Source: Minisyncoccota bacterium (lineage in GTDB: Bacteria; Patescibacteriota; Minisyncoccia; UBA6257; UBA9933). Taken from it: DNA of 64,000 nucleotides. Position 1 is the stretch's first letter. Every line of letters begins with the position of its first letter. The position numbers and the translations under genes are program-made. Location: contig JBAZEU010000001.1 of assembly GCA_041653755.1 (NCBI GenBank), forward strand, positions 1,398 through 65,397, read 5' to 3'. This document shows, piece by piece, positions 863 to 38,887 of the stretch. Under the pieces are notes generated by a model. That model did no database searches, was not told the DNA's origin, and worked only from the letters and a program-made list of their open reading frames with translations.

Positions 863-2056
863 ATGTATGATAATGTCGTAGCCCAAGAAATTTCTCGGAA
901 ATATAGGCAAACGCCGTTGGTAAATTTTGCCGGTGTCAGCCAATATACAAAGCTCCAAGATTTGAACTTAAACTGGAGAGAAAGAGATTTACCGGAACGA
1001 GCAAGAACAAAACATGTTCACAGATTACACCCGTACATGGGGAAGTTTATTCCACAGCTCGTGGAAATCTTTTTGCGAAAATATCAACCCCGCTTGGTTT
1101 ACGACCCGTTTTGCGGTTCTGGTACAACATTGGTAGAAGCGAACGCCCTCGGCATCGATTCAATTGGCACCGATATTTCCGCTTTTAACATATTGCTTTC
1201 AAAAGTAAAAACCGACGAATACAATTTTCCTTTACTGGAAAAGGAATTATACGAAATCTTAAGAAGGTTCTGCGAATACAAAAACAAATTTTCAAAAAAT
1301 AAAGGAGTTGATAAATTATTTCAAACAAAAAACGAATACATAAAAACTTGGTTTGCGCCTAACACCCAAAAAGAATTACTTTGTTATTTGAAACTCATCA
1401 AAGATTATACCTATCAAGATTTGTTAAGAATAATCTTGTCACGGTCCGCTCGGTCCGCCCGTTTGGTTACTCACTTTGACTTAGATTTTCCCAAAAAACC
1501 GCAAATCACCCCGTATCAATGCTATAAACACGGGCGAATATGCAAGCCGACCGAAGAGGCATACAAATTCCTAAATCGTTATACAATAGATACTCTTCGA
1601 CGAATAAAGGAATTTTCGCGAATAAGAACAAAGGCGAAAGTCGTTCTTAGTAACGATGATTCTCGATCCCTCAATCTTCCCAAAGGAATCGACATGGTTT
1701 TCACCTCTCCGCCTTATCTTGGTTTAATTGATTACCATGAACAGCATAAATATGCTTACGAACTTCTTGGATTGAAAAACAACGAGACGCGTGAAATTGG
1801 AGCGGCGAAAAACGGCCATTCAGATAAAGCAAAACAAGATTATATTAAAGGTATAAACGATGTCTTATTGCATACGCGTGATTATATGGCTAAAGACGGA
1901 TTGGCAATCATTGTCGTAAACGATAAATTTGGTTTGTACAAGCCTGAAGCTACAGGGTTTAAGGCAATCGGCCGAGTCGAAAGACATGTCAATCGTCGAA
2001 CCGGCAGAAGAAAGGGCGCATTTTACGAGAGCATCCTAATTTGGAAAAAAATATGA
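863..2056 (+). CDS. DNA amino-methyltransferase (N6-adenine or N4-cytosine), alpha-class motif order.
   Basis: AdoMet motif I is DPFCGSGTT near aa 80. Catalytic motif IV is FTSPPY near aa 280. The roughly 200-aa spacing suggests a target-recognition domain between them. Confidence 0.8.
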   Translation: MYDNVVAQEISRKYRQTPLVNFAGVSQYTKLQDLNLNWRERDLPERARTKHVHRLHPYMGKFIPQLVEIFLRKYQPRLVYDPFCGSGTTLVEANALGIDSIGTDISAFNILLSKVKTDEYNFPLLEKELYEILRRFCEYKNKFSKNKGVDKLFQTKNEYIKTWFAPNTQKELLCYLKLIKDYTYQDLLRIILSRSARSARLVTHFDLDFPKKPQITPYQCYKHGRICKPTEEAYKFLNRYTIDTLRRIKEFSRIRTKAKVVLSNDDSRSLNLPKGIDMVFTSPPYLGLIDYHEQHKYAYELLGLKNNETREIGAAKNGHSDKAKQDYIKGINDVLLHTRDYMAKDGLAIIVVNDKFGLYKPEATGFKAIGRVERHVNRRTGRRKGAFYESILIWKKI

Positions 2057-2889
2057 CAAAAGAACAAGAAATGAAGGAAGCCATCCAATCTGTCGTTAAG
2101 CTGATGATGAATAGGGTTATGCAAAAAGTTTTAGTGGAGGATCCGTTCATAAAAGAAGAACATAAAGCTAAAAAACCGCTGTATGCCGCTTTAGTTCCAG
2201 ATGAAATATTTAAAGGGGCGCATTTCGAAAGACGCTTTGTCACTCCTTTCGGTGGTGTCTGGGAGAAACTCGCTATTGTGGCTGCAAACAAAGGTCTTGG
2301 ATATGGAGTAAAGGAGCATAGTATTACAGGAACGGTAAATTCTGAACGGTTAAGAAGAATACAAGAAATTTTAAATAATTTGGAACATTCAGAAAAGGGA
2401 AAGAAAAAGATTAGACCGAATTGGGATAGCGAACTCAAATATATCATGGAAGGTAAAAGCGAGAAAGTTATGCCAACTACCGTTATTTGCGATGTGTACG
2501 CCGAAGATAGAAAAAATGACAAAAAATATGCCTTTGAGTTAAAAGCTCCGCTACCAAATAGTGATCAAACGAAAGTAAGTAAAGAAAAAATTCTCAAGCT
2601 ATACAGCATGGAACCAAGACAAATTGATGAGGCTTATTATGCCTTACCATACAACCCTTTCGGAAAAAGAGAAAACTATTCCTGGAGTTTTCCTGCAAGA
2701 TGGTTTGATATGAAAAATGACAAAGCGGTGTTAATTGGAAATGAATTCTGGGAAAAAATCGGAGGGCTTGGGACATATAAAGCTTTTATTGATGCAATAA
2801 ATGAAATAGGCAAGGAATATAAGGACCGAATTTACAGAGAATTTTTGGGTATTGAACCACCGTCTGATATAGATGCGGATAAGTTGTAA
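2041..2889 (+). CDS. Putative type II restriction endonuclease with a PD-(D/E)xK core, cognate to the upstream methyltransferase.
   Basis: It overlaps the methyltransferase stop by 16 nt, implying translational coupling. Motif VICDVYAED...YAFELKAP fits D...ExK. The rest is unique sequence typical of REases. Confidence 0.5.
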   Translation: MEKNMTKEQEMKEAIQSVVKLMMNRVMQKVLVEDPFIKEEHKAKKPLYAALVPDEIFKGAHFERRFVTPFGGVWEKLAIVAANKGLGYGVKEHSITGTVNSERLRRIQEILNNLEHSEKGKKKIRPNWDSELKYIMEGKSEKVMPTTVICDVYAEDRKNDKKYAFELKAPLPNSDQTKVSKEKILKLYSMEPRQIDEAYYALPYNPFGKRENYSWSFPARWFDMKNDKAVLIGNEFWEKIGGLGTYKAFIDAINEIGKEYKDRIYREFLGIEPPSDIDADKL

Positions 2890-2899
2890 TTTAATATGT

Positions 2900-3682
2900 A
2901 TGGAACCTTTTAAACTACCGGCTCTTGAATCTCTTGCGAAAATCGTCGGTGATCGTTATTCAGGAACAGGAATATCGGAATTTTTTCGTAAAGCAGGTTT
3001 TCCTGACGTTGTTCATGACGGTGGTACAAAATGGCGATTTGTGTACGCTTCCCTTGAAAATCTACAGAATCGGGCTTATGGCCCTATTAACGTGGTAAAA
3101 GTAATTCAACAGTTGTGCGATCCTCAGGAGTATTTTTCAACACCAGATCAACATACGGAAATCTGTGACCAAGTCAATCAGATTCTCGGGTTTTATGGAT
3201 TGCTGGTTGGCGAAGATGGTCGAGTGAGAAAACTTGATGAAAAAGTTACATCGCTTTCAAAGCCTATACCGGAGAATGCAAAAATATTTGATAGCCGTCA
3301 GTTTCACTCCACAATTATTTGCCACGCCCGCAAATTATTCGTCGAAGGTAATTATTTTCACGCCATTTTTGAGTGTTGTAAAGTATATGATAAAGAAGTG
3401 CAAAACAAGTCCCAGATGTCTGGCTATGGATCAAGGCTAATGGAGGAAGCTCTTTCTCTTTCGGGGTCACTTAAACTAAATACTCAACGAACCAGAACAG
3501 AAGTTAATGAGCAAGAAGGTGTTATGCATCTTTCGGTTGGTTTGATGAGGGCTATTAGAAATCCTCAAGCTCATGAACCTGCTCTTGATTGGCCAATCAA
3601 TCGAGAAGAGGCGTTGGATTTACTTTCTTTTTTGAATTTCCTATTTCGAAAATTTGATAAGGTAACATACTTTAAACAATAA
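2900..3682 (+). CDS. HEPN-domain protein (TIGR02391/Ymh-like or Abi-like), a predicted RNase. The start may be the upstream ATG at 2873.
   Basis: A C-terminal Rx4H motif (AIRNPQAHEP) sits at aa 229-234 of the 269-aa ORF. The gene overlaps the REase stop. Confidence 0.55.
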   Translation: MEPFKLPALESLAKIVGDRYSGTGISEFFRKAGFPDVVHDGGTKWRFVYASLENLQNRAYGPINVVKVIQQLCDPQEYFSTPDQHTEICDQVNQILGFYGLLVGEDGRVRKLDEKVTSLSKPIPENAKIFDSRQFHSTIICHARKLFVEGNYFHAIFECCKVYDKEVQNKSQMSGYGSRLMEEALSLSGSLKLNTQRTRTEVNEQEGVMHLSVGLMRAIRNPQAHEPALDWPINREEALDLLSFLNFLFRKFDKVTYFKQ

Positions 3683-3686
3683 ATTT

Positions 3687-6560
3687 ATGAGTACTCCATA
3701 TCCAAAAGGTTCGGAATGGCGAAAATGGGATTTACATGTCCACACACCTTCGTCTGCTTTAGCTCATACCTTGGGTAGCGATTGGGATGGATATGTCAAC
3801 CAACTTATTGATGCTATAAAAAAACACCAGATAGCCGCGATTGCTACCGCTGATTATTTTACAATTGAGGGATACAAAAAGCTGCTTGAATATTACAGTA
3901 AAGACACATGTACGCTCTCCGCAAATAGCAAAAGCGTTCAATGTTATTTGATCCCTGGCATAGAATTACGACTCAACATCTTCAACAGCGAAGAAGAATC
4001 TATAAACTTACATATATTCTTTGATCCAGAATGTTGTTCGAGCGAATTCATTACCCAAAATTTCCTTGAAGCATTAAACATCGTTTATAGGGGATCGGAA
4101 GTATTGCTGAAACAACAGAACCTTTTGGCAATTGGAAAGAGCATTGCCGATAATACACCGGCAGATTTTGGCCAGAGTTTTGGCGCATGCAGCGAAGCCA
4201 CAAAAGATGAATATATTAGAAAAGCACTTGGAGCAATAACCTTAAACTATACCAATATCGATGACGCACTTAAAGGTATTGATAAAATATTTGAAAAACA
4301 AAATCTCCCACCAAAAGCTTATTTAATCGCAGTCGTTGGTAAGGGACACGGTGGTATCAGATCGCTTAAATGGTTTGAAGACAATAAAAGTTTCTCTCGC
4401 GCTGGACTTATCAGAGAACATTTGACCTACCAAACAGATGCCATTTTTTCGAATGATCAGAACGATAGGAATTTCTACCTTGGCAGACGGGAAGATGCTC
4501 CCGCAACGGAGATTCAAAATAGGTTTGATAATCTCAAGCCGTGCATTTGGGGTTCTGATAGTCACTCTCTTGATAAATTACTTCATCCATCTAATGGCAA
4601 TACATTGGATTATACGTGGATCAAGGCGGAGATTTCCTTTGAGGGATTTAAGCAAATTACTTACGAACCAGAGCTGAGGGTAAGGGTTCAGCAAGATAAT
4701 CCAGTTGAAGAAGAAGCTTATGCAAAGATCGAAAAACTGGAATTAGATTTCCCGGATGATCTGAAAATCAAAGACAAAGAATCCGAAGAGGCGATATCCT
4801 TTTGTATTCAAGGCAAACAGGAGGTAAACTTTTCATCAAATTTGACATGTATTATTGGTGGGAGAGGATCGGGTAAAAGTACCTTGGTTCATATCCTTTA
4901 TAACCTTGTTCCAAAAAGAGACGCTGACCGACTTTCTAAAGTCAGTTCCCCTTTGTTCAATTTACAACTTGGGTCGAAAGATGAGCTAGGAAAAATTCGT
5001 TCCCAAACTAAATCTAACATACCATCGAGCACAGAATTTTTCTTACAAAATGAGGTTGAAAAATTCGCAAAAGATGTTAGTGAAATGTCTATCCTAATCA
5101 AGACTCGCCTTTACGGTTTATCTGCCATTGATGATGGACAAAAAAATCTTCAAGAAATTGAAAGTGAGTGGCAAGATACTGCCATAGGAATGGAGGAATT
5201 GATTTCCGCCTATGATGAAATCACAAGGATTGATCAACAAATAGTTTTGGTCGTTAAGCAAAAAGATACATTAAAAAAACAGACCGATGTTATCAGCTCA
5301 AAAGATTATAAAAAACTCCAGAAAGAAATTGAAGAAATAGCTAATGCCATCAGTGCTTTTGATACCTACGAAAAAGAATACAGACGATTGTCGCTTGAGA
5401 TATTGACGCTTATAAAAAGCATCGCCAGGCTCGATTGGACTAAATATGAAGGCCAGTCTATTTTGGTTTCCCTATCCGCCGAACTTGATAAAAAGAAAGC
5501 CGAGATTCAAACATTTTTTGAAGAAACAAACAAAAAATATGTTACCGCAGATTACGCAACTAAATTAGGCGATAAAAAAACGCAACTAAAAAACTTCTTG
5601 AAAGAAAAGGGCCTTTCTCCGGAAAATATTGGAGAAATAGCCACCGCTACGCAGCAAATTGCTGAGTTGGATGAACAAATAAAGATTCTGAGGCAGGAAA
5701 GAATACCACACCAAGAAATCTATGACAGTAAAGAAGGGACACTTCAAACATATAGAGAGGCGTACGCTTCTTACAAAGGAGTGTTCGAATCAGTAGCGAA
5801 TAAGCTTCAATCAAATTTAAGTAATCTTAAATTTGACGGCGAAGAGACAAACATTTCTTTTCAATTTAAGACTAATGATCAATTACTAAAAGACGGAGTT
5901 GCTGATTTTATTAAAAGCCATAACACTTCAAGAATTAATTTAAGAGCCGATAACATTCAAAATGTTTTATTTGGGAATAATGATGTACCCTTTTCAGCTA
6001 TAGTCTCTGATCAATTAAAGATAGTGGCGGCCGTAAATAGTTCAGAGGTGGCCGATGCCCACACTCAAATTATTAGGGATCTAATAGGCGACCCAACTTT
6101 TGTTGAAAAACTTTACTTGCGGATGCAACGATACCACTTTGACATCGAAAACGTCCAAGTGCAAACAAAACTTGGCGAGAAATTTTTACAAAACACGTCG
6201 TTTGGCGAGAGATGTGGAATCGTAATTGCTATTGTTCTTGTTGCCGGAACAAATCCTATAGTAATTGACCAACCAGAGGATAATCTGGACGGGAAATATA
6301 TTTCGAAAGTTCTTGTTCCTTTAATCCGTACTCAAAAACATAAACGCCAAATTGTACTTGTTACAAGAGATGCAAATATTGTAATTGGTGGCGATTCAGA
6401 ACTGATATTAATTCTTGATAAAGAAAACCATGGTTCAGTATTACTGCCTGCAACTATCGAGAATAAAGTTATTCGATCCAAATATATTTGGATTCTAGAC
6501 GGTGGCGAAAGAGCATTCAAAGCTCGTGAAGCAAAATACTGTATTCACAAAGCAGCATAA
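3687..6560 (+). CDS. PHP phosphoesterase fused to an SMC/Rad50/SbcC-like ABC ATPase with a long coiled coil. From memory, possibly the TrlF-family architecture.
   Basis: PHP motifs are WDLHVHTPSS, GIELR, NLHIFF and WGSDSH in the N-terminal ~330 aa. Walker A is IIGGRGSGKST at aa 391-399. A coiled-coil-like charged region spans about aa 430-800. Signature-like SFGERCG lies at aa 838-844, Walker B/D-loop VIDQPEDNLD at about aa 860, and H-loop-like VLVTRD near aa 890. Confidence 0.75.
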   Translation: MSTPYPKGSEWRKWDLHVHTPSSALAHTLGSDWDGYVNQLIDAIKKHQIAAIATADYFTIEGYKKLLEYYSKDTCTLSANSKSVQCYLIPGIELRLNIFNSEEESINLHIFFDPECCSSEFITQNFLEALNIVYRGSEVLLKQQNLLAIGKSIADNTPADFGQSFGACSEATKDEYIRKALGAITLNYTNIDDALKGIDKIFEKQNLPPKAYLIAVVGKGHGGIRSLKWFEDNKSFSRAGLIREHLTYQTDAIFSNDQNDRNFYLGRREDAPATEIQNRFDNLKPCIWGSDSHSLDKLLHPSNGNTLDYTWIKAEISFEGFKQITYEPELRVRVQQDNPVEEEAYAKIEKLELDFPDDLKIKDKESEEAISFCIQGKQEVNFSSNLTCIIGGRGSGKSTLVHILYNLVPKRDADRLSKVSSPLFNLQLGSKDELGKIRSQTKSNIPSSTEFFLQNEVEKFAKDVSEMSILIKTRLYGLSAIDDGQKNLQEIESEWQDTAIGMEELISAYDEITRIDQQIVLVVKQKDTLKKQTDVISSKDYKKLQKEIEEIANAISAFDTYEKEYRRLSLEILTLIKSIARLDWTKYEGQSILVSLSAELDKKKAEIQTFFEETNKKYVTADYATKLGDKKTQLKNFLKEKGLSPENIGEIATATQQIAELDEQIKILRQERIPHQEIYDSKEGTLQTYREAYASYKGVFESVANKLQSNLSNLKFDGEETNISFQFKTNDQLLKDGVADFIKSHNTSRINLRADNIQNVLFGNNDVPFSAIVSDQLKIVAAVNSSEVADAHTQIIRDLIGDPTFVEKLYLRMQRYHFDIENVQVQTKLGEKFLQNTSFGERCGIVIAIVLVAGTNPIVIDQPEDNLDGKYISKVLVPLIRTQKHKRQIVLVTRDANIVIGGDSELILILDKENHGSVLLPATIENKVIRSKYIWILDGGERAFKAREAKYCIHKAA

Positions 6561-8779: not shown

Positions 8780-8847
8780 AAGACGGTAATATTAAGAAAT
8801 AATTAGACCCGAACAGATCTAACATCGCAGTCAGCGGAGTTTTCAAG

Positions 8848-9036
8848 GGTAAGTAGTGTAAATATGTCTTCCCGCACATTTTCTCCTATCTTAATTTTTA
8901 TTTCACAAACAGCGAAAATGGATCATAAGAAAAGGTTGGAAAAATATTTTTACGGTTCGTGGAAGTTTTTACTCTTTATTATATTTATCGATGTTCTTCA
9001 GGTAAAAAGTTCTAACATCGTCCACGAGCCTGCACC
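8848..9036. repeat. Dispersed repeat family, full copy A (~190 bp).
   Basis: About 85% identical to 15352-15540. The core gtcttcccgcacattttctcctatctt...cacaaacagcgaaaatg also occurs at 12838-12900 and 13131-13185. Confidence 0.7.
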
Positions 9037-9266
9037 AACGATGACTTTTTAACTCTAATTCACAATTCAGCTAGTAAATACAACAAAATTTTAGGTTCTA
9101 ATCTTTTATCAAATTATAGCAAAAAGGTAAGCACCCCAGAGAGGACTGGAACCATTCCCAAAAAGTTCGAATCCTAGGCACACCGCCAAACGCAGGGAAG
9201 CGTGTTCTTTGAAAAGTCTAAAAAATGTTTAGTTTAAAGACTGAAAGAATGTTAAGATAAAAATAT

Positions 9267-11015: not shown

Positions 11016-11100
11016 AAAACGTATTTTCCCCTCCCTGAACCAGTCTTGACGAAAGGCTGGTTTTTTGTTATCGTCCAACCAGATTTTTGATAATTAAAAC

Positions 11101-11170
11101 TTCTTTTATAGGGTAAATTTGTCCCTGAGAAATTCCTCTCGGGACCAGATAAAACCCTATGAAAGGGAAA
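11101..11170 (+). promoter_or_regulatory. Conserved structured 5' leader RNA motif, copy 1, upstream of pyrF.
   Basis: TTCTTTTATAGGGTAAATTTGTCC, then a hairpin, then CCAGATAAAACCCTATGAAAGGGA. The same motif with compensatory hairpin changes occurs at 14791-14860. Confidence 0.5.
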
Positions 11171-11179
11171 GGAGGGGTT

Positions 11180-11920
11180 ATGGAAGCAAAAGATAGGATT
11201 ATTGTTGCATTGGATGTGGACAGTCTGGAAAAGGCGAAGCCACTCGTAAAAAGTCTTGCTCCGCACGTCGGATGTTTCAAGGCTGGTTTAGAGCTGCTTA
11301 TGGCCGCTGGCGCTCCGAAGATTGTCGAGTTCATTCATTCGCTCGGTGGCGATGTCTTTCTCGACGGCAAGTTCAATGATATCCCAAATACGGTCGGCAA
11401 TTCAGCCAAAGTAGTCGCTGGGTTAGGAGTCGAGGCGTTTAATGTTCATGCCTCGGCTGGCATTGAAGCAATGATGGCCGCTGTCGCCAACAAAGGGGAA
11501 TCGATAGTTCTTGCCGTGACGGTACTCACTTCGTTAGAGGAAAACAATGTTTATTTAATCTTCGGCGCACCGAGCAAAGCTAAGGTTTTGCAATTGGCGC
11601 GTGATGCGAAGATCGCCGGCTGTGACGGTATTATCTGTTCGCCACAAGAGTTAGAATTTCTCGGGAAACAAAAAGGCATCGAGGGTTTGATGAAAGTCAC
11701 CCCGGGCGTTCGTCCAGAATGGGCCGCGGTAGGAGATCAAAAGAGAGTTATGACACCGGCAGAAGCTATTAAGGCCGGAGCAAACTACTTAGTTATTGGT
11801 CGACCAATAACTAAACCACCCGCGGAAATTGGCACGCCTATTGACGCAGCCAAGGCGATTGCAAAAGAAATTCAGGACGCGTTCGTTGATATGGAAATGA
11901 AGCAACAGTTTAAAGGTTAA
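11180..11920 (+). CDS. pyrF: Orotidine 5'-phosphate decarboxylase.
   Basis: Motifs IIVALDV and DGKFNDIPNTV match the OMPdecase D-x-K-x-x-DIPNT signature. An AAGGAGG RBS lies 6-8 nt before ATG 11180, so the track start at 11159 is probably too early. Confidence 0.8.
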   Translation: MEAKDRIIVALDVDSLEKAKPLVKSLAPHVGCFKAGLELLMAAGAPKIVEFIHSLGGDVFLDGKFNDIPNTVGNSAKVVAGLGVEAFNVHASAGIEAMMAAVANKGESIVLAVTVLTSLEENNVYLIFGAPSKAKVLQLARDAKIAGCDGIICSPQELEFLGKQKGIEGLMKVTPGVRPEWAAVGDQKRVMTPAEAIKAGANYLVIGRPITKPPAEIGTPIDAAKAIAKEIQDAFVDMEMKQQFKG

Positions 11921-11956
11921 CGAAAAGAAACAAAACTATGAAAGGAGGTGAAAGAC

Positions 11957-12745
11957 ATGAAAGGACCAGCAAAAAGAGCAAGCGAGTTAGTTTCAATCGC
12001 CAGGTTCGATCATTTGCTAACACTAAAGAGATGTGGCGGATATTATGAATGCCCCATTAGCCCAGAAGGCAAACTTTTGGGTCCTCTGGTTGGTTATGCG
12101 GGTAAGTACGAGGCGCCTGACAAAACCAAAAAACAGTGGGTTGGTATGATATATGCCAATTTTGCCAAAGCAGAAGAATATCCACACGTTTTGTATTGGT
12201 TCGCTCAGCAGATGATTAAGCCAAAGAAAATAGGAGCGGCAATTCTCGGCTTAACTGATGTTTTCTGCGGTGCTCCATTGGGCGGTTACGACTTTGCCAA
12301 GATGCTTGGTTTGGTTCTAGATCGTCGAGCAATCAAGGCTGAGAAAAAAGTAACTGCATTTGCGACAGCCGACATGCGCGAACAATCCACCATGACATTT
12401 GCTCGCCACGAAATAAAACCGGGAGACAGAGTCACAATAGTGGAGGACGTGTGTAATAACTTTTCAACAACCGATCAGCTTATCCAGTTGATCGAACAGG
12501 CGGGCGGTTCAGTAACGGCTATTACTTGTTTACTAAATCGTTCTTTGACCGTTGATTCAATCTACACCCCTCCACGTAAAATAGTGTCCTTGCCGGTCAT
12601 AAGTCTCGTCCGTTTACCGATCGCTGAGTTTAAACAAGAAGATTCTGCGGTCGCTGACGACATTGTCCGAGGCAACGTAGTTTTAAAGCCAAAGGATGAA
12701 TGGGGACGATTGATGGCAGCGATGGATAAGGAAGAAAAGCAATAA
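11957..12745 (+). CDS. Type I phosphoribosyltransferase, probably orotate PRTase (pyrE-like) given its position after pyrF.
   Basis: The PRPP-binding motif is VTIVEDVCNNFSTTDQ. RBS AAGGAGG at 11942-11948. At 265 aa it is longer than canonical PyrE. Confidence 0.5.
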   Translation: MKGPAKRASELVSIARFDHLLTLKRCGGYYECPISPEGKLLGPLVGYAGKYEAPDKTKKQWVGMIYANFAKAEEYPHVLYWFAQQMIKPKKIGAAILGLTDVFCGAPLGGYDFAKMLGLVLDRRAIKAEKKVTAFATADMREQSTMTFARHEIKPGDRVTIVEDVCNNFSTTDQLIQLIEQAGGSVTAITCLLNRSLTVDSIYTPPRKIVSLPVISLVRLPIAEFKQEDSAVADDIVRGNVVLKPKDEWGRLMAAMDKEEKQ

Positions 12746-12797: not shown

Positions 12798-12837
12798 TTC
12801 AAGATTTTTTATATTTTTAATATGTTTCATAGTAGTA

Positions 12838-12900
12838 ATTTATCTTTCCGCGCATTTTCTCCCATCTTGATTTCCTTTTCATAAACAACGAAAATGAATA
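12838..12900. repeat. Partial copy C of the dispersed repeat core.
   Basis: tatctttccgcgcattttctcccatcttgatttccttttcataaacaacgaaaatg is about 80% identical to the copy A/B cores. Confidence 0.55.
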
Positions 12901-14666: not shown

Positions 14667-14790
14667 TGCTCTTCATAACCCTATTTCCCAACGAGCATAA
14701 ATAAAGTACTTTTTAGTATAAATCATCATTCATTGACAAACCTAGCGATTTTTGTTATTGTTCGCTTAGTATTTTAATAATCTACAGTCT

Positions 14791-14860
14791 TTCTTTTATA
14801 GGGTAAATTTGTCCTTGAGTTGAGATTTCCTCAACCTCGAGGCCAGATAAAACCTTATAA
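14791..14860 (+). promoter_or_regulatory. Conserved structured 5' leader RNA motif, copy 2.
   Basis: The flanks are identical to copy 1. The internal hairpin ccttgagttgag/ctcaacctcgagg is longer but preserved by covarying positions. Confidence 0.5.
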
Positions 14861-14872
14861 AGGGAGGAAGAA

Positions 14873-15271
14873 ATGAATGGATGGTTTATTTTTTGGGCTG
14901 TTGTTGTTACGTTTTTCGCTTTGTGCATGAGCTTTCTTCTCGGTTTTAATCTGCGGCCTGAAAAGCAGAATGTTGATTTGGCAAAGATTTTAGCTATGCT
15001 CATGGTTGTCGGAGCTTTAGCGCTTCCATTGCTTTGGAGGTATGTCAACGCCGGAGATCTGCTCGAGGCAGGAGCTTTAAAAGCCAATGCGGTGTACGAA
15101 CTTCGCGGCCAAGTTGATACGGGGAGAGGAACAACTGCTGCTATTTTGGTAGATATGGCAGGGCATATTAAAGCCTGTAAGCTTAAAAGTCCTATCCTTG
15201 CCCCGCCTAAGTTTCTCAGGACTCACGTCTTACCAAACGGAGCAATGGAGCTCCAGCCAATTAGCCCTTGA
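14873..15271 (+). CDS. Small hypothetical membrane protein (2-3 TM helices).
   Basis: GGAGG RBS. Hydrophobic N-terminal half. It sits directly downstream of leader motif copy 2. Confidence 0.4.
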   Translation: MNGWFIFWAVVVTFFALCMSFLLGFNLRPEKQNVDLAKILAMLMVVGALALPLLWRYVNAGDLLEAGALKANAVYELRGQVDTGRGTTAAILVDMAGHIKACKLKSPILAPPKFLRTHVLPNGAMELQPISP

Positions 15272-15351
15272 AAACCATCTTTTCATCATTGTATCGAAGA
15301 CCCCACCACAGCAATTGTGATGGGATCTTTATTTTTCAGACTATATTTATA

Positions 15352-15540
15352 GTAAGGAGTGTAAACTTATCTTCCCGCACAAATTTTCCCATCTTGCTTT
15401 CTTTCTCACAAACAGCGAAAATGAATCATAAGAAAAGGCTGGAGAAATATTTTTAAAGGCTTCGTGGAAGTTTCTATTCTTTATCATACTTATCGATGTT
15501 TTTCAGATAAAAAGTTCTAACGTCGTCCACGAGCCTGCAC
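15352..15540. repeat. Dispersed repeat family, full copy B.
   Basis: About 85% identical to 8848-9036. It ends 1 nt before the ATG of the MBL hydrolase gene. Confidence 0.7.
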
Positions 15541-15541
15541 T

Positions 15542-16194: not shown

Positions 16195-17115
16195 TTATTT
16201 TAATTCTTTTCTTCGTCTCCCATGAAATGCTTGGTGGACTTCTCTTAACTCTTGGTTGGTTAAATGAGTGTAAATTTGAGTTGTAGAAACATTCTGATGG
16301 CCTAAGATTTCTTGGACTGAGCGCAAGTCCGCGCCGCCGATTAAAAGATCAGTAGCAAAAGCATGGCGAATAGTATGCGGGTGAATATTGGTAGTAATGC
16401 CGGCTTTTATCGCATAGTGCTCCACTAATCTTTCAATAGTTCTAGGAATAATACGGCCGATGATTTTCGGTTCTTTCGCTTTGGTTAAGCTTATAAACAT
16501 TGTCTCTTCGGTGTCATTTCTTTTATCTAAATAATTTTTTATCGCTTTTCTTGCTCTGTCCGAAAGGAAAACTAATCTTATTTTACCTCCTTTTCCGCGC
16601 ACCGAAACCTCTCCTCTTTCTAGATCGAGATAACGATCCAAAGCGCATAATTCGGAAACTCGTAAGCCGGTTGAAAATAAAACCTCTAAAATTGCTTTAT
16701 CGCGCAAAGATTTTAAGTCGTTTCCTGACGGAGCAGAGAGCAATCGTTCCAAATCCTTATATTCCAATATTTTAATTTGTCGTTCTGGGATTTTGGGGAG
16801 CTCGATATTATCTGAAGCCAGAACATCGTAATTATTTTTTGCTAAGTATTTTAGAAAATTCCTGATAGCGATTATGTAATATGATTGGGTATTTTTTTGA
16901 AGAGGTTCATTTTGTTGGGCGCCTTGTTGTTTACTTAAAAATAGTCGAAAATCGCGGACTTTGTCTTGAGTAATATCTTTTTCGGTTTTTATTTTTGAGA
17001 AGCTAAAAAATGCTTTAAGATAGCGCTCATAGTTTTTTTGCGTCTTCGGCGAGCGGTTTTTCTCAATTTCCAGATAGGCCAGGTAATCTTTTAAAAGTTG
17101 GTTTATGTCAGCCAT
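16195..17115 (-). CDS. xerC: Tyrosine recombinase XerC/XerD family.
   Basis: An N-terminal SAM-like core-binding domain. The catalytic region contains R...HTIRHAFAT...LGHQNVSTTQIYTHL with the terminal Tyr. Confidence 0.85.
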   Translation of the reverse strand: MADINQLLKDYLAYLEIEKNRSPKTQKNYERYLKAFFSFSKIKTEKDITQDKVRDFRLFLSKQQGAQQNEPLQKNTQSYYIIAIRNFLKYLAKNNYDVLASDNIELPKIPERQIKILEYKDLERLLSAPSGNDLKSLRDKAILEVLFSTGLRVSELCALDRYLDLERGEVSVRGKGGKIRLVFLSDRARKAIKNYLDKRNDTEETMFISLTKAKEPKIIGRIIPRTIERLVEHYAIKAGITTNIHPHTIRHAFATDLLIGGADLRSVQEILGHQNVSTTQIYTHLTNQELREVHQAFHGRRRKELK

Positions 17116-17200
17116 TAGGGTAAGTATAGAGCATTCAGGGAAGTGTCGCAAAATCTCTCGAATTTGCTTTTTAGAAATATTTGGGCTATAATAGATTCAA

Positions 17201-23726: not shown

Positions 23727-25430
23727 TTAGACCTCGATTACCACCGGTATTATTACCGGCCGCCTCTTGGTCTTAGTATACAAAAATTGGCCGATTTGTT
23801 CACGAATCAATGACTTTAAATAATCAGCTTCGATTGGTTGATAATGAGGGATTCTCATTACGGTGTGTTTGATTTTGTTCCTTAGGTCTTCGATGAAATC
23901 CTTATTTTCTTTTAAGTAAATAAATCCGCGAGAAATGATATCAGGATTTTTAAGTAAGCTGCCGTTTTGTCTGTTAAGAGTGATAATAATGACTACCATT
24001 CCTTCTTGGGATAGCGAACGTCTATCGCGCATAACGACTTCTTCAACGTCCCCTACGCCGAGTCCGTCAACCATAACGTAATAGGCGGGGACTGTTTCTT
24101 TGGAGATATGGAATGCGTCTTTGGTGAGTTTAATTATTTCCCCGTTATCAGCTAAGATGCAATTTTTTTGCGGGATTCCAACCTCTGTCGCTAGTTCCGC
24201 GCTCTTATATCGCATAAAGTAATAGCCGTGCGTTGGCATGAAAAACTTTGGTTTTATAAGCCGCATTACTTCTTTCAGCTCTTCTTGCGGTGCATGACCA
24301 GAAGAATGGAAATCAACTACTGCTGATTGATGGATGATTGCTCCTTGACGAGCCAAATTATCTTTTAATGTTTGGATTGCTCTTTCATTACCTGGAATAA
24401 CAGAGGCGGAAAAAACAACTGTGTCGCTCGGCTTTATTTTTATAAATCTATGTTCAGCGTTACTGATTTTCATTAAGCTGGCGTTTGGTTCTCCTTGGGC
24501 ACCGGTACATAAAATCAAAAGTTGCTCATCTCTATATTTGTGGATGTCTTGAATCGGAATTGTTGATTGTTTTTTTATTTTTAGATATCCAAGATTTTGT
24601 GCGATGGTGACATTGTTTTTCATCGAAGTGCCGCTAATCGCCACGTATCTTTTTTGTCTTTCAGCAATCTTAATAATCTCTGCAATTCTTCCTAATAAAG
24701 ATGCGAACATTGCGATAATAATTCTTCCTTTCGCTTTTTTCATCATGTCTTCAATGTTTTTCTCGACTACTCTTTCTGAGACGGTATATCCAGGAATTTC
24801 GGCGCTGGTGCTATCAAGAGAAAGAGTGTGAATTCCCATCTCGCCAACTTTTTTAAACATTTCTAATCCTCTAAAATTATCGTTTTCGTCTCGGTCGATT
24901 TTAAAATCAACAATATGGCAGAAATTGCCAATCGGGGTTTTTAACACCATTCCAAAGGTGTCTGGGACATTGTGTTCTATGGGGAAAAGTTGCACTTCGA
25001 AATATCTTGAGATTTGTATCTTATCTTCTGGCTTTACAACTTCTATCTTTAGTTTTGGCGCGTTAGGTACTTCTTCCTGTCTTTTTTCGATAATGGCTTT
25101 GGTGAGAGCTGTTGTATAGATAGTTGGATTGCCTAATTTTTCGATTATATAAGGAAGAGCGCCGATATGGTCGTAATGAGCATGGGTAAGAAAGAGCGCT
25201 TGGATGTTTTCTTTTTTCGATTCTAATGAGGATACATTTGGGATAATGAAATCAATTCCTGGTGTATCTTCTTCGGGAAATTGAAGCCCGGCGTCAATAA
25301 GCACAATTTCATCTTTGTACTCTAGATACATCATATTGCGGCCGACCTCTTCAAGACCGCCAAGAGGAACGACTTTCAAAGAGTCGCCTTGCGGTTCCAC
25401 TGTTTTGTGTTGTCTTTTTGGTTTAATCAT
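23727..25430 (-). CDS. rnj: Ribonuclease J (MBL + beta-CASP).
   Basis: HxHxDH motif (LFLTHAHYDHIGALP), beta-CASP, and a C-terminal domain. The track's N-terminal extension overlaps the tRNA region, so the start is probably ATG at 25430. Confidence 0.9.
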   Translation of the reverse strand: MIKPKRQHKTVEPQGDSLKVVPLGGLEEVGRNMMYLEYKDEIVLIDAGLQFPEEDTPGIDFIIPNVSSLESKKENIQALFLTHAHYDHIGALPYIIEKLGNPTIYTTALTKAIIEKRQEEVPNAPKLKIEVVKPEDKIQISRYFEVQLFPIEHNVPDTFGMVLKTPIGNFCHIVDFKIDRDENDNFRGLEMFKKVGEMGIHTLSLDSTSAEIPGYTVSERVVEKNIEDMMKKAKGRIIIAMFASLLGRIAEIIKIAERQKRYVAISGTSMKNNVTIAQNLGYLKIKKQSTIPIQDIHKYRDEQLLILCTGAQGEPNASLMKISNAEHRFIKIKPSDTVVFSASVIPGNERAIQTLKDNLARQGAIIHQSAVVDFHSSGHAPQEELKEVMRLIKPKFFMPTHGYYFMRYKSAELATEVGIPQKNCILADNGEIIKLTKDAFHISKETVPAYYVMVDGLGVGDVEEVVMRDRRSLSQEGMVVIIITLNRQNGSLLKNPDIISRGFIYLKENKDFIEDLRNKIKHTVMRIPHYQPIEADYLKSLIREQIGQFLYTKTKRRPVIIPVVIEV

Positions 25431-25437
25431 ATTTGTT

Positions 25438-25500
25438 AGTGGGCAGGGCGGGAGTTGAACCCGCAAGGGCGGGGCCCGCTCCGCACCCGCTTCCCCTCTG
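25438..25500 (-). other. tRNA-like element (T-arm plus partial acceptor stem, no complete cloverleaf) between tRNA-Leu and the rnj start.
   Basis: Minus-strand sequence GCGGG-TTCAACT-CCCGC followed by CCTGCCC-A. No matching 5' acceptor strand or D/anticodon arms. Confidence 0.25.
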
Positions 25501-30800: not shown

Positions 30801-32327
30801 ATGAACGCTTTAAATTCGCTTTTTGGCGTGTCTCTATTAATTTTAGGCAGTATTGTCGGCTATTTTTTACGACAAACAATTGTGTCCAAGCGAACCAAGT
30901 CGCTTGAGCAAGTTATTAAAAAACAGCTCGAAGAATCAAAAGCCAAAGTCGCTGATATTGTTTTAAAAGCCCAAGAGAAAGCCGCTGATTTGTTGGAAAA
31001 ATCGACCATCGAAGAGAAAGAAAGGAAAACCCAGCTTTTAAAACTGGAAGAAAGATTGCTAAGAAGAGAAGAAATTTTAGATCAAGAATCAGCTGGATTA
31101 AAAACCAAAGACCAGCAAAATCAGCAAACTGCCAAAGAATTAGAAGAAACGAAAGTTGAAATCAGTAGTCTAAGAAATGAAGCAATCATCCAATTAGAAA
31201 AAGTCAGTGGATTTTCAAAAGACGAAGCCAGAGAAGTTTTGTTGAAAGATGTTCGGGAACAATACCAAAAAGAATTGTCTCAATCGCTTGAAAAGCTGGA
31301 GAAAGACAAGAAAGAAGTGTTAGAAAAAAAGTCGTTGGAAATTATGACTACGGCTATTCAACGTTTAAGCCGTTCTCATGTGGCCAATGTTACTACGACA
31401 AACTTTGATTTAAAGAGTGAGGATTTGAAAGGAAAAATTATTGGTCGGGAAGGAAGAAACATTAGGACACTAGAACGATTAACAGGCGTTGAATTAATTA
31501 TTGATGAAACACCGGATAGCTTGGTTATCTCCTCTTTCGACCCGGTTAGACGTGAAATTGCCCGGTTGACCTTAGAAAAATTAATAGCTGACGGAAGAAT
31601 TCAACCAGCTAAAATCGAAGAAAAGGTTGAAGAAGCCAAGCAGGAAATAAATAAGAGAACCATCGAGGAAGGAGAAAAAGCTGCTTCTGAATTAGGAATC
31701 TATAACTTACCGAAAGAACTTGTTCAGCTTTTAGGCCGTCTTTATTTCCGCTTCAGTTTCGGCCAGAATGTTTTGCTTCATTCAATAGAAACAGCACATT
31801 TATCTTCAATGATTGCTTCAGAATTGGGGATTAAGGTAGAGGTGGCCAAAAAAGCAGGCTTACTTCACGATATTGGGAAATCGATTGACTACGAAGTAGA
31901 AGGCAGTCATGTTGAACTAGGCAGAAAGATTCTTAAAAAATACGGCATTGAAGAAGATGTGATTAAAGCGATGGAGTCCCATCACGAGGATTATCCATTT
32001 GCTACTTCGGAATCGTTTGTGGTAGCAGCGGCTGACGCTATTTCAGCTGCCAGACCGGGTGCCAGAAGAGACAGCTTGGAAAATTACATCAAGCGCTTAG
32101 AAGAGCTTGAGAAAGTGGCTGTTGCTTTTAAAGGCGTGAAAAACGCTTATGCTATTTCTGCCGGCCGAGAACTGCGAGTTTTCATTGAGCCGGAGAAAGT
32201 TGATGACTTTGGCGCTCTACAATTAGCCAGAGAAATTGCTTTAAAAATAGAGTCAGAGTTAAAATACCCCGGTGAGATAAAAGTTACGGTTATCAGGGAA
32301 ACCAGAGCGGTTGAATACGCAAAATAA
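30801..32327 (+). CDS. rny: Ribonuclease Y.
   Basis: N-terminal TM, coiled coil, KH domain (IGREGRNIRTLE) and HD domain (LLHDIGK). Confidence 0.9.
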   Translation: MNALNSLFGVSLLILGSIVGYFLRQTIVSKRTKSLEQVIKKQLEESKAKVADIVLKAQEKAADLLEKSTIEEKERKTQLLKLEERLLRREEILDQESAGLKTKDQQNQQTAKELEETKVEISSLRNEAIIQLEKVSGFSKDEAREVLLKDVREQYQKELSQSLEKLEKDKKEVLEKKSLEIMTTAIQRLSRSHVANVTTTNFDLKSEDLKGKIIGREGRNIRTLERLTGVELIIDETPDSLVISSFDPVRREIARLTLEKLIADGRIQPAKIEEKVEEAKQEINKRTIEEGEKAASELGIYNLPKELVQLLGRLYFRFSFGQNVLLHSIETAHLSSMIASELGIKVEVAKKAGLLHDIGKSIDYEVEGSHVELGRKILKKYGIEEDVIKAMESHHEDYPFATSESFVVAAADAISAARPGARRDSLENYIKRLEELEKVAVAFKGVKNAYAISAGRELRVFIEPEKVDDFGALQLAREIALKIESELKYPGEIKVTVIRETRAVEYAK

Positions 32328-37931: not shown

Positions 37932-37970
37932 AGTTGCTATCTTTCGCGGCCGCGAGAGATAGCAACAGGA
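37932..37970 (+). terminator. Long inverted repeat/terminator after glyA.
   Basis: gttgctatctttcgcg gc cgcgagagatagcaac forms a 16-bp stem. Confidence 0.45.
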
Positions 37971-38026: not shown

Positions 38027-38887
38027 ATGATTATTGATGGTAGAAAAATTGCGGAGGATATTATAGTGAAGCTTCGCTTTGATATATCAAGCAAGCTTGC
38101 TATTAATGGGCTTAAGATTCAGCTGAAACCCGATAAGATTTTTGCGGCTATTTTGGTGGGTGAAAATCCGCAATCTATAAGCTTTTTAAAGCAAAAAGAA
38201 AAAATTGCCAAAGAATTAGGAATTGATTTCAGGATTTACAAATTTCCTGAAAACATAACGAGCGATGAGCTGAGAAAAGAAGTTGGGAAGATTTCTCAAT
38301 TGAGTAAAGTAGGTGGTGTTATCGTTCAACTCCCGTTGCTGGGGCAAATCAACAGTCAATATGTTTTAAATGCTATCCTTCGAGAGAAAGATATTGATGT
38401 TTTAGGGGAGAGAGCATTAGGTGCTTTTTACGCCGGTAGAAATCCAGTTTTACCGCCATCGGTGGCAACAGTTGATGCTGTAATTCAGAATTTAGAAGTA
38501 AAAATTAAGAATTGTCGCGTCGCTGTTGTCGGAGCAGGATTTTTAATCGGAAAGCCGATTGCGACGTGGTTGGCGGGCAAAGTAAAAGAACTTTATATTT
38601 TAGATATCGGCAGCGATTTATCGATTTTGAAACAAGTTGATTTGGTAATCTCTGGGGTTGGCAAAGTAGGTTTAATAAAATCAGAAATGTTGAAAGAAAA
38701 CGCCATTGTTATTGATTTCGGATATTCAATAGATGAGAGTGGGAAGATTAAAGGTGATTTCGATATTAATGATCCAAGATCCAAGATCCAAGATCCATGC
38801 GTCTACACTCCTACTCCGGGCGGCACTGGCCCGATTTTAGTTGCTAAGATTTTCGAAAATTTTTATACTCTCAATAATGAACAATAA
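38027..38887 (+). CDS. folD: Bifunctional methylenetetrahydrofolate dehydrogenase/cyclohydrolase.
   Basis: VVGAGFLIGKPIATWL Rossmann and PTPGGTGPI motifs. Confidence 0.9.
   Translation: MIIDGRKIAEDIIVKLRFDISSKLAINGLKIQLKPDKIFAAILVGENPQSISFLKQKEKIAKELGIDFRIYKFPENITSDELRKEVGKISQLSKVGGVIVQLPLLGQINSQYVLNAILREKDIDVLGERALGAFYAGRNPVLPPSVATVDAVIQNLEVKIKNCRVAVVGAGFLIGKPIATWLAGKVKELYILDIGSDLSILKQVDLVISGVGKVGLIKSEMLKENAIVIDFGYSIDESGKIKGDFDINDPRSKIQDPCVYTPTPGGTGPILVAKIFENFYTLNNEQ

Follow-up and report, generated by a model that had tools for sequence, protein, structure and literature searches.

A sequence-conserved leader hairpin in a duplicated promoter-leader module upstream of pyrF in a Candidatus Paceibacterota genome

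The pyrF gene of a Candidatus Paceibacterota (CPR) MAG is preceded by a real, selected and lineage-private structured leader, which lies within a promoter-leader module that is duplicated in the 64,000-nucleotide stretch of DNA analysed here (the window). The leader represents a new sequence family, while the kind of element is a familiar one. As for its function, we tentatively favour a factor-recognised and probably protein-bound operator acting on translation or mRNA stability; the label of riboswitch is not earned. Almost nothing is known of how genes are regulated in CPR/Patescibacteria, which rely on hosts for nucleotides. If true, a selected and sequence-specific pyrF leader RNA would give one of few openings for studying how salvage is tuned, and the duplicated module shows how a new orphan gene can gain ready-made expression signals. 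As the evidence comes from one genome, the element is described as a well-defined candidate and not as a discovery.

Two copies of the module and their surroundings

The element measures about 67 and 75 nt at window positions 11101–11167 (copy 1) and 14791–14865 (copy 2), respectively, and is built in the same order in both copies: a 24-nt identical 5′ block, a variable hairpin and a near-identical 3′ block. The original prediction of two leaders with the same architecture at these positions was confirmed by exact matching. The sequence TTATAGGGTAAATTTGTCC occurs exactly twice in 64 kb (11106 and 14796; 0.09 expected by chance), and exact occurrences of CCAGATAAAACCYTAT are located at 11145 and 14843. 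The 5′ block TTCTTTTATAGGGTAAATTTGTCC is identical at 24 of 24 positions. The 3′ blocks (TATGAAAGGGA vs TATAAAGGGA) show the C/T difference that had been predicted; the second variant, originally read as a G/A substitution, is actually a 1-nt indel. No conserved uORF was found in the sequence of either copy.

Copy 1 stands upstream of a unit on the forward strand (11180–12745), which comprises pyrF (11180–11920) and a divergent OPRTase-like PRTase gene (11948–12745). The earlier assignment of pyrF is correct (Pfam OMPdecase, 4.7e-46; NCBIfam PRK00230). The gene behind it, previously called pyrE-like, indeed encodes an OPRTase-like, divergent type-I PRTase from a large CPR-specific family, but its top profile match, pyrE_Therm, is far under the cutoff. 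Copy 2 precedes a gene for a 132-aa predicted membrane protein (14873–15271, forward strand), which is an ORFan, with no homologue except itself among 5.8 billion proteins. Either this ORF is miscalled, or it represents an orphan gene that took over an existing promoter-leader module.

The similarity between the copies continues upstream of the hairpin into a shared sigma-70-like promoter, on which the original prediction was silent, giving a module of about 135 nt. The shared promoter consists of TTGACR, a 17-nt spacer ending with TGT (extended −10) and TATYGT. In copy 1 (11046–11074, forward strand), the −35 and −10 hexamers are TTGACG (11046–11051) and TATCGT (11069–11074); in copy 2 (14733–14761, forward strand), TTGACA and TATTGT are separated by the same type of 17-nt spacer ending with TGT. 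The pattern TTGACN{12,16}TGTTATNGT matches in the window only at these two promoters (11046 and 14733), with 0.01 matches expected. Where transcription from the first promoter is predicted to start, copy 1 carries the conserved block AGATTTTTGATAAT (11081–11094, forward strand), which is identical at 11 of 14 positions to AGTATTTTAATAAT of copy 2 (14768–14781, forward strand; repeat family D6). The block of copy 1 also holds a possible second −10, GATAAT, paired with TTGTTA 18 nt upstream, and the corresponding sequence of copy 2 is AATAAT. Owing to these two promoter-like sites, the hairpin would lie either about 20 nt from the predicted 5′ end or directly at the 5′ end. A terminator-like hairpin of the upstream unit (11037–11063; GAACCAGTC..GGCTGGTTT followed by a T-run) overlaps the −35 of copy 1: the −35 hexamer of the pyrF promoter is situated in the loop of this hairpin, and the T-run of the hairpin is the T-run before the extended −10.

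Conservation along the module is strongly uneven. Identity between the copies amounts to 5/6 in the −35 hexamer, 11/12 in the T-run with the extended −10, 24/24 in the 5′ arm of the hairpin and 19/23 in its 3′ arm (in MAFFT columns, including the C/T difference and the one indel). The linkers are identical at just 12 of 42 positions (29%), close to the random expectation of about 26%. Since the linkers have been randomised while the blocks were kept, the duplication appears to be old and the conserved blocks appear to be under selection, rather than the result of recent copying. This selection is deduced from a single comparison, that of two paralogous copies within one genome, as the search for orthologous copies was negative. 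The arms might also have been homogenised by gene conversion, although this process would then have left out the element's centre.

The start-site block itself could point to a pyrimidine response at the level of transcription. UTP-sensitive reiterative transcription has been described for codBA, upp and pyrBI (PMC7039003). By analogy with E. coli codBA and upp, the T-run at the start site (AGATTTTTG / AGTATTTTA) might mediate UTP-sensitive start choice together with reiterative transcription, whereby the hairpin would be accessory, e.g., by pairing with a poly-U 5′ extension or by competing against it for the purine-rich Shine-Dalgarno (SD) tract. The 11/14 conservation of the block between linkers at random level, its location 7–8 nt after the −10 and its resemblance to 5′-ATTTTTTG of codBA and 5′-GATTTTTTTTG of upp (PMC7039003) are in line with this idea. 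However, the T-runs are shorter here (5 and 4 T), the start site is a predicted one, and the block can also be read as a second −10. Furthermore, a T-run mechanism leaves the hairpin unexplained, and no such run is present at the predicted start of the L023-type pyrF promoters in relatives. Altogether, we consider a response through the T-run quite improbable.

The surrounding 17 kb has the look of a variable island, encoding a methylase with a TdeIII endonuclease, a Ymh protein, an SMC-like ATPase, a dCMP deaminase, a DUF8370/8371 protein, an MBL hydrolase and an XerC-like integrase, and it contains further duplicated segments. Island-like genes around the leaders are situated at window positions 863–6560 and 16195–17151; they include the DNA methylase, the TdeIII restriction enzyme, the Hypoth_Ymh protein, the 957-aa SMC-like ATPase and, on the minus strand, the XerC-like tyrosine recombinase. 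A repeat of up to about 190 nt is present in three copies (8845–9052, 12804–12899 and 15331–15541), of which two are long, with blocks up to 94% identical, and one is partial, at 72%. These repeats follow the dCMP deaminase gene, the PRTase gene and the ORFan, respectively; the last copy reaches into the beginning of the MBL hydrolase gene, of which the first copy has just the initial bases. They are not notably structured (z −0.5 and −0.9). As their minus-strand translation looks conserved with synonymous changes, they may be gene remnants. Readings of the leader element as an integron attC site, a dif site or a MITE were discarded on grounds of sequence and position.

Fold of the leader and access to the Shine-Dalgarno sequence

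Each copy is predicted to form one long imperfect hairpin, a rod of 27 bp in copy 1 and 31 bp in copy 2, and the MFE and centroid structures show the same hairpin. The common fold contains a basal helix P1 of 14 bp (16 bp in copy 2), an AA/AAA internal loop, the helix P2 (AUUUG/CAGAU), a variable helix P3 and a loop of 5–6 nt. In copy 1 (11101–11167, forward strand; −30.9 kcal/mol, z −3.36), the P1 strands 11101–11114 and 11154–11167 are followed by the internal loop (AA 11115–11116; AAA 11151–11153), P2 (11117–11121 with 11146–11150), P3 (11122–11125 and 11127–11130 with 11137–11144, whereby U11126 and C11145 are bulged) and the apical loop AAUUCC (11131–11136). In copy 2 (14789–14867, forward strand; −33.6 to −34.4 kcal/mol, z −5.34), P1 (14791–14804 with 14852–14865) is extended by 14789–14790 paired with 14866–14867; here the AA of the internal loop is located at 14805–14806, P2 at 14807–14811 with 14844–14848, P3 at 14813–14824 with 14830–14842 (C14835 bulged) and the loop AUUUC at 14825–14829.

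In the z-score test, no shuffle reached the observed folding of either copy, and the two elements are more structured than any other of the 25 window leaders whose intergenic region measures 90 nt or more. When the variable segment alone was shuffled with the flanks fixed, the observed energy was attained in 13 of 5000 shuffles for copy 1 and 3 of 5000 for copy 2. This demonstrates that the distal stem is really kept in both copies despite their 8-nt length difference, as had been proposed for the variable internal hairpin. The presence of a structured element on the sense strand of both 5′ leaders was likewise confirmed by the fold energies, the z-scores and the strand comparison, in which the sense strand gave a lower folding energy than the antisense strand both in copy 1 (−30.9 vs −25.6 kcal/mol) and in copy 2 (−33.6 vs −18.3 kcal/mol). 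The third most structured leader of the window (z −4.5) is a long near-perfect hairpin at 37933–37966 (GUUGCUAUCUUUCGCG GCCG CGAGAGAUAGCAAC), in the 99-nt gap ahead of the gene at 38027, which may be the terminator of the preceding gene.

The fold includes 4–5 G-U pairs (4 in copy 1). The G-U pairs, the greater stability of the sense strand and the self-complementary variable spacer together indicate that the element is an RNA hairpin and not a DNA palindrome or site. An element acting as DNA, either an operator with two inverted half-sites or a MITE/REP-like mobile inverted repeat, would be compatible with the sequence conservation of both arms and with the mosaic locus, in which other duplicated segments and an integrase lie nearby. 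However, the spacing of the arms differs by 8 bp between the copies, and a DNA site has no need for a self-complementary spacer or for a sense strand that folds markedly better. Moreover, there are only two copies, with no third in 64 kb, and they share the same orientation, each being located between a homologous promoter and an SD. A DNA-level element is therefore a very unlikely explanation.

The way in which the pairing is preserved differs between the parts of the hairpin. P1 and P2 show no compensatory change between the copies and are invariant except for a G-C pair that becomes G-U. In this comparison of two sequences, at most one compensatory pair (C-G vs U-A, in one register only) was observed, in addition to the paired insertions of P3. 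The covariation signature claimed in the original prediction was thus overstated: the paired insertions in P3 stand, but compensatory exchange is limited to this one pair at most and does not occur in P1 or P2. Since the lower stem (on both of its strands), the AA/AAA loop and P2 have kept their exact bases while neutral positions of the module were randomised, the maintenance of pairing is insufficient as an explanation, which suggests sequence-specific recognition.

Combined, these observations lead us to the tentative proposal of a factor-recognised operator. The transcript would fold into the long imperfect hairpin, base pairing CUUCUUUU with the purine tract on the SD side. The hairpin might then act in cis on translation initiation and/or mRNA lifetime, and a trans-acting factor, most likely an RNA-binding protein, could recognise its sequence specifically. 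By analogy, such a factor may work like those that bind the multi-copy, sequence-conserved hairpins found in attenuation, of the PyrR binding loop and RAT element type. No candidate binding protein for the leader hairpin was identified.

A constitutive structural leader without sensing is nearly as likely as the factor-recognised operator and constitutes its close rival. Here, the hairpin would either protect the mRNA as a 5′ stabiliser against 5′-end-dependent decay or serve as a processing site of the RNase III type, through which the region of translation start is freed or shaped, and it would have been duplicated together with a strong promoter. The helix of 27–31 bp is rod-like, very stable and interrupted by a single small asymmetric internal loop, which is what such a leader could look like, and genes for RNase J (23727–25466, minus strand), RNase Y (30801–32327) and PNPase are present in the window. 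If the second −10 (GATAAT/AATAAT) is used, the hairpin begins within a few nucleotides of the 5′ end. In addition, no conserved alternative pairing was found by eye in the MFE and centroid folds of both copies. On the other hand, a constitutive leader predicts compensatory changes in P1 and P2 at saturated divergence, and none were observed across 24 + 23 nt.

The basal helix joins the 5′ pyrimidine tract to the purine tract that leads into the SD, and the position of the SD relative to P1 differs between the copies. In copy 1, the SD AGGAGGGG (11170–11177) and the pyrF start codon (ATG 11180) occupy 11170–11182 on the forward strand. The AGGAGG of this SD is located 3 nt 3′ of P1 and is predicted to be mostly unpaired if the transcript starts near the hairpin; it is predicted to be free whether P1 forms or not. 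In copy 2, the SD GGGAGG (14862–14867) lies inside the basal helix, with a predicted unpaired probability of about 0. It had been proposed that the 3′ strand of P1 abuts the SD and that refolding could thereby gate translation. The first part holds, with P1 adjoining the SD in copy 1 and covering it in copy 2. The second is not supported: with an accessible SD in copy 1 and a sequestered one in copy 2, the two leaders reveal no gating mechanism in common. The same difference does not fit neatly with a single translational mechanism for the factor-recognised operator. A terminator scan revealed no U-run or terminator between the hairpin and the start codon (3′ flank GAAAGGGAAAGGAGG). Without a U-run terminator behind the hairpin, its effect would not be classical attenuation.

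The start of pyrF is likely the ATG at 11180, in agreement with the NCBI protein of 246 aa. An alternative in-frame ATG within the 3′ strand of P1 of copy 1 (window 11159–11179), 7 codons before the annotated start, would give a product of 253 aa; it is without its own SD and has no counterpart in copy 2.

Distribution of the element and a separate pyrF leader family

The Rfam scan proposed along with the original prediction was carried out, and its outcome supports the statement that the element was not recognised as a known riboswitch class. With Rfam 15 (4227 models, including riboswitches, PyrR and ribozymes) at the gathering threshold, only 3 tRNAs were detected in the window, and permissive scans (E ≤ 10) of both leaders yielded only noise at 10–16 bits. 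A covariance model built from the two window copies (R2) was used to search for further members. No third copy was found in the window with the filters off, and no copy was detected in 71 related loci. The 11 loci added later contributed four further pyrF or PRTase leaders, and visual inspection showed that all of these differ. None of the sampled relatives is close to this genome, with 85% identity for the best PyrF match and 68% for that of the PRTase. When 185,579 GTDB species-representative genomes were scanned with the exact pattern, 13 chance hits were obtained, all lacking the enclosing helix, and the exact pattern gave only chance hits in viral contigs as well. A literature search for a pyrF or Patescibacteria riboswitch retrieved nothing relevant.

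The pyrF leaders of relatives differ from the window element. The closest relative by operon type among the loci examined (L116) encodes a PyrF with the same C-terminal tail and the same PRTase of about 260 aa, and its leader has only a TTGAGA..TTCCTCAA hairpin in common with copy 2, being otherwise unstructured. The apical hairpin shared with this leader (TTGAGAGCTTCCTCAA vs TTGAGATTTCCTCAA) is suggestive, but local alignment gave p = 0.07, and the relationship was rejected.

These results bear directly on the riboswitch reading of the original prediction, here taken to mean that a pyrimidine-pathway ligand at the internal loop/P2 would alter SD access. The location upstream of pyrF and a PRTase gene, the conserved nucleotides around the internal loop combined with a variable distal stem, and the sequestered SD in copy 2 are consistent with this reading, and the element would then be a new class, as it has no Rfam match. 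However, no copy was found before pyrF in the 71 + 11 related loci, whose pyrF leaders are different. A lack of further copies in related genomes had been named in the original prediction as a refuting outcome, and every search made here, in a sample without close relatives, gave this result. The structure argues in the same direction: the 27–31-bp rod offers as conserved unpaired positions only AA/AAA and one or two bulged bases, and P1 comprises 14–16 bp with no competing fold found by eye. In addition, the SD states of the copies differ, with the SD of copy 1 free with or without P1, and the gene behind copy 2 is an ORFan without a pyrimidine link. The riboswitch reading is not supported, and we regard it as quite unlikely.

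The relatives revealed a different leader. Many CPR pyrF genes possess a strongly conserved leader of about 75 nt, composed of a promoter, GAGGAGG, a hairpin (H1), AAUUUGUACCUCGAAAACCAAA and an SD; it was found at L023:1926–2003 and in about 20 other loci (L016, L022, L026–L040, L046, L051, L068). In H1, 95% of cells are paired and three double changes are present, while the core of the leader is nearly invariant and predicted to be unpaired. This H1-type leader has no Rfam match either. In L038, the H1 leader occurs twice together with its promoter (1886–1961 and 2837–2910), before pyrF and before a probable purB, the N-terminus of which gives a weak match to adenylosuccinate lyases at the right position (E 0.13–0.35). 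A diverged form (H1 + AUCGUACAUU + ACCAAC) precedes a PRTase gene alone at L125:205–268. In L120, the 27-nt sequence UUUAAACCUCGCGGAUGCGAGRAGAAA (hairpin CCUCGC/GCGAGG) was observed at 4908–4940 and 5187–5215, directly before acpP and pyrF; L120 and L038 are two other loci that reuse a leader element within the locus.

The H1 family (H1 + AAUUUGUACCUCGAAAACC core; model R1) resembles copy 1 in preceding the same gene, at the same position, with AAUUUGU-CCU in common, and its duplication together with a promoter within one locus in L038 is a further parallel. MAFFT aligned the window copies to the core of this family, and the core pattern AATTTGTNCCT (exact 10-of-11) is unique in the window, at copy 1. 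In the test of the shared core AAUUUGUNCCU, the exact pattern was again unique at copy 1, the PSSM ranked this site 5 of 128,000 positions, and local alignment gave p = 0.13. In contrast, H1 itself is absent from the window copies. With R1 and filters off, the best hits in the window had E > 0.3 and lay elsewhere, and only the SD tail of copy 2 scored (9.9 bits); whole-leader local alignments between the window and the H1 family were not significant (p 0.13–0.29). Because the R1, PSSM and local-alignment tests all failed, the window element was not filed under the H1 family. The hypothesis that the window hairpin and the leaders with an H1 hairpin and GUAC-box are lineage variants of one undescribed Patescibacteria nucleotide-salvage control element, sensing a nucleotide-pathway signal as a new riboswitch class or via a PyrR-like RNA-binding PRTase, seems unlikely to us. 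The H1-type CPR pyrF leader family is a more interesting lead than the window element.

Several candidate features of the H1 family were evaluated and rejected. A switch helix between the 3′ strand of H1 and a downstream segment, which would match P1 of the window element, is convincing by eye, yet a duplex-vs-shuffle test on 14 lineages gave Fisher p = 0.68, and the counts revealed no covariation beyond that of shuffles. The core does not stand out as an anti-SD, since shuffled cores paired with the SD region at least as well. Two further ideas, a pseudoknot formed by the H1 loop with the ACCA tail and a DNA site resembling the B. subtilis PurBox, were judged by eye only and dropped, as the changes were inconsistent. 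A possible leader peptide, (M)LGSICTSKTK (L023:1946–1996 type), starts at a GTG/ATG in the H1 loop; three third-position-only changes (ATT-TGT-ACC, in close relatives) and variable in-frame stops speak for it, and in L035, L039 and L040 its frame runs into pyrF without a stop. The case for MLGSICTSKTK is weakened by a frameshift in the first L038 copy (L038a), by changes outside third positions in the second (L038b) and by GCG at the start column in 3 sequences.

Comparison with known leader systems

Among known systems, codBA, upp and pyrBI are comparable in that a T-run follows a few nucleotides past the predicted start of a pyrimidine-gene promoter, as in both window modules. The likeness concerns the block upstream of the hairpin, however, the T-runs are shorter in the window, and copy 2 serves a non-pyrimidine gene.

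PyrR binding loops of Gram-positive pyr operons are imperfect hairpins of conserved sequence, several of which occur in the pyrimidine-gene leaders of a single genome, and the operon encodes a protein with the PRTase fold. The window element (compared with RF00515) shares the multi-copy conserved hairpin leader and the PRTase-fold protein in the operon. It differs in giving no match to the covariance model even at E ≤ 10, in the absence of the conserved PyrR loop sequence and of a terminator/antiterminator pair, and in that the sole PRTase of the 64-kb window is OPRTase-like and not PyrR.

SD-sequestering hairpins such as fourU/ROSE thermometers and translational operators also pair a 5′ pyrimidine/U tract with the purines of the SD, and the buried SD of copy 2 is similar to theirs. 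In comparison with thermometers, the window hairpins are far too stable (−31 to −34 kcal/mol), and the SD of copy 1 is not buried.

Finally, the window element resembles RNase III hairpins and 5′ stabilisers in its dsRNA of more than two helical turns, its small asymmetric internal loop and its position in the 5′ UTR; its 27 and 31 predicted pairs, interrupted by the AA/AAA loop, exceed the dsRNA size of RNase III substrates (at least about 20 bp). Those hairpins are defined mainly by their shape, whereas the two window copies are conserved in sequence on both strands.
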